From: a virus
Lineage: Duplodnaviria > Heunggongvirae > Uroviricota > Caudoviricetes
Virus record (IMG/VR): IMGVR_UViG_2579778952_000005
Span: 1 to 11,814 of that record
Strand: one strand, 5' to 3'
Length of the DNA stretch: 11,814 nt
Positions 10,409 through 10,753 of this stretch are shown piece by piece. How positions within the stretch are numbered: the first letter of the stretch is position 1; the number at the start of each line of letters is the position of its first letter. Made by a program: the position numbers and the translations under genes. The notes beneath the pieces are model-generated. The model saw only the letters and a program-made list of their open reading frames with translations, ran no database searches and had not been told where the DNA came from.

Positions 10409-10594
10409 TTAACATTTACAGATAAGATGACGTACATCATTGAAACGCCATTCAGCCATATACCGGCAGCATTCGTAGTTGCACTCCGTAACTCTGCGAC
10501 TAAGGTTAAAAACATGGCCCTCTTTTGCCACCGGCAAATCTTCAATGGATTTCCCCTGCCGGTTTTTTATTTTCGTCGATGCATAACATTGCAT
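10409..10594 (-). CDS. Hypothetical small Cys-rich protein (61 aa)
   Basis: ATG-initiated ORF with six Cys (C3, C38, C42, C43, C59, C61) lying between cos and the next gene, where lambdoid phages carry small ORFs of unknown function. No convincing Shine-Dalgarno and several rare codons, so it may be non-coding. Confidence 0.3.
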   Translation of the reverse strand: MQCYASTKIKNRQGKSIEDLPVAKEGHVFNLSRRVTECNYECCRYMAEWRFNDVRHLICKC

Positions 10595-10753
10595 TTACAT
10601 CAATAGCGGCTATTGTCATTAGTATGTTGCATCAATGCATGGGTGGTATTGGCGGTCTTCGCCGGCCGCTTCTGTGTAGCTGCTCCCTGTGACCGGTTTT
10701 TTATTTCTCACATTACAGCAACCCCTTAGAGTGAAGGGCTGCTGTAATGCCTG

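Follow-up and report, generated by a model that had tools for sequence, protein, structure and literature searches.

Accessory units and small RNAs of lambdoid prophages

The bor and lom genes of phage lambda are morons, i.e. accessory units of the late region that have their own promoter and terminator. The bor unit occupies the interval from the lysis genes to cos and runs on the other strand. Operators of phage repressors, e.g. OR and OL of lambda, are 17-bp imperfect palindromes that overlap promoters. Phage operators form groups of sites close to the repressor gene, and the sites and the gene are conserved jointly.

Tree et al. (2014) described a class of prophage small RNAs (sRNAs) represented by AgvB, AsxR and EcOnc01–03 (PMC4104026). 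These are small intergenic units that occupy accessory (‘moron’) sites within the late region and frequently run antisense to its operon. Each is equipped with a promoter and a Rho-independent terminator of its own, and combines a 3′ part that is conserved with a 5′ part that varies. The RNAs are 51–60 nt in length and are encoded just downstream of PR′ near the lysis genes, and both their expression and their binding to Hfq have been demonstrated (PMC4104026). PasA, PasB, PasC and PasD of EPEC E2348/69 are also intergenic sRNAs of lambdoid prophages; they are confined to Escherichia and Shigella, are patchily distributed and vary in sequence (PMC8550237, PMC13192938). PasB is encoded amid structural genes and is characteristic of ETEC and ‘other’ strains (PMC8550237, PMC13192938).

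The DNA analysed here, termed the window, is a stretch of 11,814 nucleotides and represents a prophage of the lambdoid type, whose late genes run on the minus strand. A spacer of this prophage contains two non-coding modules, M1 and M2, next to cos. M2 is tentatively considered to be a moron-type gene for a small RNA on the plus strand, with the pair of hexamers TTGCAT and TATTGT as its promoter; the probability of this is placed a little short of even.

M2 resembles the AgvB/AsxR class in its layout and pattern of variation, and fits the layout of prophage sRNAs in that it stands alone, is non-coding, and joins a variable 5′ region to a conserved 3′ structure and a U-tail. It differs from the class in that it adjoins cos, and in that its putative RNA has a predicted length of ~85 nt. 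M2 also differs in that neither its sequence nor its structure matches RF02702 or RF02703. The different position on the phage map led to rejection of the AgvB/AsxR class as the identity of M2.

As a putative intergenic RNA of a lambdoid prophage, M2 is comparable to the Pas sRNAs. [quoted passage not shown] A candidate sRNA locus of EPEC, E2348C_1408/1409, is unrelated, as it adjoins an IS element and not the terminase. Like bor and lom, M2 is an accessory unit of the late region; those two genes encode proteins, whereas M1 and M2 have no coding signal.

Rfam 15, which includes AgvB, AsxR, Esr41, STnc100 and IsrG, gave no match in 10427–10760, even with E values up to 10, and yielded only spurious sub-threshold matches when applied to the whole window or with lax filters to 10380–10780. 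A full-text literature search for the M1 and M2 sequence strings found no paper, and a search for sRNA or transcription-start data from strain H10407 found nothing relevant.

The prophage and its cos site

Pfam domains in the window are those of Nu1 (9624–10169), gpU, the tail tube protein, a gpK-like protein, gpI, gpJ (2320–5715) and the N-terminus of a tail fibre. A minus-strand open reading frame at 8600–9649 encodes 349 aa, in which Pfam recognizes the GpA_ATPase domain of the large terminase (residues 47–194) fused to the C-terminus of tail protein Z (residues 187–349). This fusion signifies that the rest of the terminase and all head genes are deleted in the window prophage, which is defective and cannot package DNA. 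A prophage of ETEC H10407 is 100% identical to the window over 10150–10800, and has its terminase and head genes intact; its M2 is at 1307629–1307766 of NC_017633.1.

The spacer is 585 bp in length and lies between Nu1 and a minus-strand gene of family phrog_1935 (10754–11146), whose function is unknown. The cos site was mapped by BLAST of 10150–10430 against phage records. Positions 13–207 of the phage 21 genome (OL657228) align with positions 86–280 of the query, with genome position 1 at window position 10357, and the right end of phage cdtI (47021, its last base) corresponds to window position 10358. This places the cos cut at 10357/10358, and the cosN site, on the minus strand at 10346–10357, has a 12-nt cohesive end of the phage 21 type. 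The record M81255 has terminase and IHF binding sites annotated across the aligned phage 21 cos/terminase region. A repeat search located the cosB repeats CCGACATGA at 10197 and 10298, and inverted at 10237–10248. A 25-nt inverted repeat with 84% complementarity at 10190–10254, which gave sub-threshold microRNA matches in Rfam, was considered as an RNA gene and rejected; it represents the inverted terminase-binding repeats of the phage-21-type cosB.

Homology of the cosB/cosN/cosQ region to phage 21, lambda and phage IdasGreatGrand stops at ~10389–10415, short of M1 and M2. That to IdasGreatGrand (92%) ends near 10389, and phage 21 lacks the sequence that comes next in the window.

A modular spacer

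M1 is a conserved non-coding module at 10427–10572 (plus strand), directly upstream of cosQ, and occurs with or without M2. It is ~35 nt from a cosQ-like sequence in nearly all loci. Of 5426 complete E. coli genomes, 276 carry M1, and it also occurs beside very different small terminases. M2 is a presence/absence insert of 134 bp at 10573–10706 (plus strand), situated between cos and the last accessory gene of the late region. It is bounded by a direct repeat of 14 nt, CCGGTTTTTTATTT, whose left copy is at 10559–10572 and whose two copies are 100% identical at a spacing of 134; sequences that lack M2 are joined exactly at the repeat.

Phages phi458 and cdtI carry M1 but lack M2, as do ~50 of 130 IMG/VR loci with M1, and all 84 IMG/VR copies of M2 are preceded by M1. 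M2 is found in 118 of the 5426 E. coli genomes (~2%), many of them ETEC. The GTDB species representatives lack M2, and a scan of these for its core pattern produced nothing but chance matches of 24 nt, all in unrelated genomes rich in GC. The accessory nature that the earlier note ascribed to the region is thus borne out by an insert that is missing in phages with the same cos. M2 was also considered as a diverged duplicate of M1, and this is not supported; beyond the shared 14-nt tail the local alignment has P = 0.08. The diversity of M1 and M2 is 0.02–0.09, as against 0.34 in the adjacent small-terminase genes, which could reflect recent horizontal spread rather than selection.

On the other side of M2, just past the stop codon of the upstream late-strand gene, is a 14-bp hairpin termed HP4 (10711–10749, strand unspecified). 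Five of its 14 pairs show two-sided compensatory changes, e.g. CAGCAGCCC/GGGCTGCTG, CAGAAGCCC/GGGCTTCTG and TAGAAGTCC/GGACTTCTA, which indicate a real structure. It has no U-run on either strand and is therefore not a canonical terminator. HP4 marks the outer, mosaic boundary of the conserved non-coding block.

The invariable location of M1 and M2 directly upstream of cosQ and cosN raises the question of whether they are an accessory extension of cos that binds terminase or IHF. There is a weak resemblance (83%) between the conserved 5′ motif of M1, CATTGAAACGCC, and the R repeats to which terminase binds in cosB, and 10593–10608 resembles the cosN flank (88%), but short repeat matches of this sort often arise by chance, and M2 contains no R-type repeat. 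Phage 21 and IdasGreatGrand share the cos site, yet their homology stops before M1; M2 is optional, and the block also adjoins very different small terminases. As phages with the same cos do without the block, a role in packaging is highly improbable.

The palindrome and its flanking hexamers

The 5′ half of M2 holds the whole of a region (10575–10650) that the earlier note regarded as operator-like. With the cut at 10357/10358, this region lies 218–293 bp inside the right end of virion DNA. It includes the palindrome CAATAGC-g-GCTATTG (10601–10615), whose right arm overlaps a −10-like hexamer, and four hexamers that bracket it: ATGCAT at 10579–10584, TTGCAT at 10589–10594 (plus strand, −35-like), TTGCAT at 10627–10632 and ATGCAT at 10635–10640. 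On rechecking the sequence, all coordinates given by that note were correct.

The note had proposed that this symmetry is typical of a binding site for a dimeric regulator. Such a regulator would control the promoter that the palindrome overlaps. A perfect 7-bp inverted repeat over a −10-like element is indeed the classical arrangement seen at lambda OR and OL. However, the window is rich in inverted repeats of this size: 11 perfect ones with spacers of 0–5 are present, vs 4.6 ± 2.5 in dinucleotide shuffles, and two have a 1-nt spacer, vs 0.7 expected. By itself the palindrome is statistically unremarkable, one of many. In favour of an operator, the cluster of hexamers is non-random in the window sequence. 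WTGCAT/ATGCAW has five sites in 11.8 kb, compared with 14.8 expected, and four of the five are within 62 bp (10579–10640); four in 62 bp was reached in none of 300 shuffles of the window and none of 1000 shuffles of the intergenic region.

It may be added that ATGCAT, TTGCAT and ATGCAA are strongly under-represented in the window outside 10579–10640. Restriction avoidance could be the cause of this scarcity.

Homologues were drawn from complete E. coli genomes, phage records and IMG/VR contigs, and the alignment of M2 comprises 36 distinct sequences. The arms of the palindrome are perfect in ~69 of the 84 IMG/VR copies, and operators are often imperfect. Nevertheless, four of the seven pairs vary among the 36 sequences, and all 23 departures (alignment cells) leave the pair unpaired, with no change that is compensatory or compatible with wobble pairing; the variants are CAATAGCaGCTATTG, CAATACCgTCTATTG, CAATACCaGCTAATG and CAAGAGCaGCTATTG. 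Nucleotide diversity in the palindrome (0.055) exceeds that of M2 on average (0.042), of the −35-like hexamer (0.037) and of the −10-like hexamer (0.020). Thus the conservation of the palindrome in homologous prophages, which the note had put forward as a check, is not found. Nor is the bracketing symmetry of the hexamers kept. Four of the six columns vary in the first hexamer, compared with one in the second (TTGCTT in one haplotype), and the third and fourth lie in the most variable stretch of the module.

A second copy of the palindrome with up to three mismatches is found neither in the window nor in 18 kb of the early/immunity region of the H10407 prophage. As the note had observed, no regulator gene is nearby, the neighbours being the phrog_1935 protein of unknown function and Nu1. 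The palindrome consequently differs from OR and OL in being single-copy and in having no regulator, no site in the immunity region and no conserved symmetry. To our knowledge the region also fits none of the sites compared with it by eye, i.e. those of sigma-54, IHF, FNR, CRP and Cra and the direct repeats of response regulators.

With symmetry not maintained among homologues and no further related site in the DNA searched, an operator for a dimeric regulator is very unlikely. What argues for it comes from the single window sequence and from nothing beyond. If M2 is a small RNA gene, the palindrome would have arisen by chance in one haplotype, and its right arm would simply be the −10 region.

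The promoter-like pair

The −10-like hexamer TATTGT (TAATGT in one haplotype) is on the plus strand at 10611–10616, 16 nt after TTGCAT. The pair TTGCAT-16-TATTGT matches the consensus TTGACA/TATAAT at 7/12 positions, with 3/6 in the −35 hexamer. This is below the 9/12 threshold used in a consensus promoter scan, and the scan reported no promoter-like site in 10100–11200.

The pattern of conservation is of another sort. Within the 5′ half of M2, variation is lowest in two islands, TTGCAT and TATTGT, and the 16-nt spacing between them is constant. The −10-like hexamer has the lowest diversity (0.020) of the segments in that half. Immediately after it, the stretch at 10617–10640 (plus strand), with its second pair of hexamers, varies in 16 of 24 columns and has the highest diversity in M2 (0.094). 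The match to consensus is poor, but the suggestion in the earlier note of a promoter at TTGCAT-16-TATTGT is weakly supported by conservation, and fares better than that of an operator. If M2 is a small RNA gene, this pair would be the most meaningful part of the region that had drawn attention.

Hairpins in the 3′ part of M2

The conserved 3′ part of M2 begins with the hairpin HP1, TTGGCG-GTCTT-CGCCGG (10649–10665, plus strand). Read as plus-strand RNA its pairing is 99.5%, vs 74.5% as minus-strand RNA. In every case but one the changes convert U-G to U-A, which fits a plus-strand and not a minus-strand RNA. The strands were compared by explicit pair counts, as RNAalifold energies were ambiguous for both.

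HP1 is followed by a terminator-like hairpin, CCGGT...ACCGG and then TTTTTTATTT, with the right copy of the 14-nt repeat (10666–10706, plus strand). It has a 5-bp stem, a 21-nt loop and a T6ATTT (U6AU3) tail. Deletions of 3 nt and 8 nt are found in the loop among homologues, and the stem arms persist. The hairpin is present beside the U-run in the minimum-energy fold of four of six haplotypes. It is absent from that of the window copy, where C at 10669 breaks one pair, and from that of the majority variant. The fold of M2 shows no extra stability relative to shuffled sequence (z = −0.78 and 0.04). The case for a Rho-independent terminator is weaker here than in M1.

These properties have to be weighed with the main rival of a small RNA gene, a functionless remnant. 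M2, and possibly M1, would be a recombination scar or decaying remnant, in which the hairpins and T-runs do no more than insulate the modules from stray antisense transcription, and the hexamers would be conserved because the block is young. M2 is dispensable, as working phages with the same cos and many M1 loci are without it. The microhomology at its ends is of a sort typical of illegitimate recombination, and its distribution is narrow, with copies 90–100% identical; the promoter is weak and the terminator stem of the window copy has a mismatch. However, variation in M2 is structured, the hexamers and 3′ hairpins being conserved and the stretch after the −10 variable, and the changes in HP1 keep pairing on one strand only. 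The block also persists beside very divergent terminase genes, and 280 bp of inert DNA is rarely kept by phage genomes. On balance a functionless scar seems somewhat unlikely.

Module M1 and its terminator

The terminator of M1 is an interrupted 10-bp hairpin, CCGGCAAATC...GATTT...TGCCGG followed by TTTTTTATTTT (10531–10573, plus strand). It has a stability of −17 kcal/mol (z = −2.85) and a U6AU4 tail, and on the plus strand it appears by sequence to be a Rho-independent terminator, i.e. a GC-rich hairpin followed by a U-run. The stem is 100% paired in 31 distinct sequences, and the sole change in it is from A-U to G-U. The ~50 nt at the 3′ end of M1 are almost invariant, other changes being in the apical loop only, and the terminator is also invariant among copies found by the 5′ motif alone.

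Upstream of this structure, no convincing promoter was found in M1; by eye the best is TTGCAC-16-TAAGGT, ~6/12. Alignments reveal two forms of M1 near 10507 that differ by a 2-nt indel, GGT--TAAAA vs GGTTATAAAA, and the longer form creates the sequence TATAAA ~12 nt upstream of the invariant 3′ region. This TATAAA could be the −10 element for a short RNA of ~55 nt. M1 may thus be a second, shorter small RNA gene.

Both modules have open reading frames, and the question arises of whether a small protein is encoded. The candidates are a 61-aa frame at 10409–10594 (minus strand), with its ATG inside TTGCAT, and a 55-aa frame at 10525–10692 (plus strand). Some records annotate hypothetical proteins at this locus, but the annotated strands and frames differ from record to record. 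The plus-strand frame from 10427 is open in 25 of 26 haplotypes; yet no reading frame is preserved, the frames being broken by indels, of 1 and 2 nt in M1 and of 1, 3 and 8 nt in M2. The variable columns of M1 have no codon periodicity (15/14/14 by codon phase), and the minus-strand frame loses its start codon wherever M2 is missing. The open reading frames of M1 and M2 matched no PHROG family. A small protein is scarcely credible.

A putative small RNA and its significance

In the tentative reading of M2 as a small RNA gene, TTGCAT (10589–10594) and TATTGT (10611–10616) would constitute a weak sigma-70 promoter, and the T-run of the preceding M1 terminator may serve as an UP-like element for it. 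Transcription would start near 10622 and yield a plus-strand RNA of ~85 nt that is antisense to the late operon, its single-stranded 5′ end formed by the variable stretch and the second hexamer pair within it. The conserved 3′ part would fold into HP1, then the terminator hairpin with U6. Modular structure, pattern of conservation, hairpins and lack of coding signal are all observed directly. That M2 is transcribed, and from this start site, and any regulatory role of its RNA, including dependence on Hfq, we infer from the sequence. In favour of a small RNA gene, M1 and M2 each end in a hairpin and T-run, on the plus strand only. Against it are the 7/12 promoter below the scan threshold, the weak terminator of M2 and a fold no better than that of shuffled sequence.

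The right end of lambda DNA is the end that enters the cell first. A more speculative proposal, and an unlikely one at present, is that M1 and M2 each give rise to a prophage small RNA not described before, from within the last 70–350 bp of the virion right end, with transcription running inward. These RNAs would be among the first products on infection, could also be expressed in the lysogen, and might target host or competitor RNAs via their variable 5′ regions.

If the block is only a scar, the locus illustrates how chance in a single haplotype can produce a tempting operator-like palindrome within a phage spacer, and the exact boundary of cos and the modular structure of the spacer are mapped nonetheless. 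If M2, with M1, is a real small RNA gene, it would add an unannotated class of prophage regulatory RNA, at a position directly upstream of cos that is not yet associated with sRNAs. It is carried mostly by ETEC, among them the reference strain H10407, and by E. coli from livestock, and a real gene would broaden what is known of accessory prophage RNAs by which host regulation is rewired.
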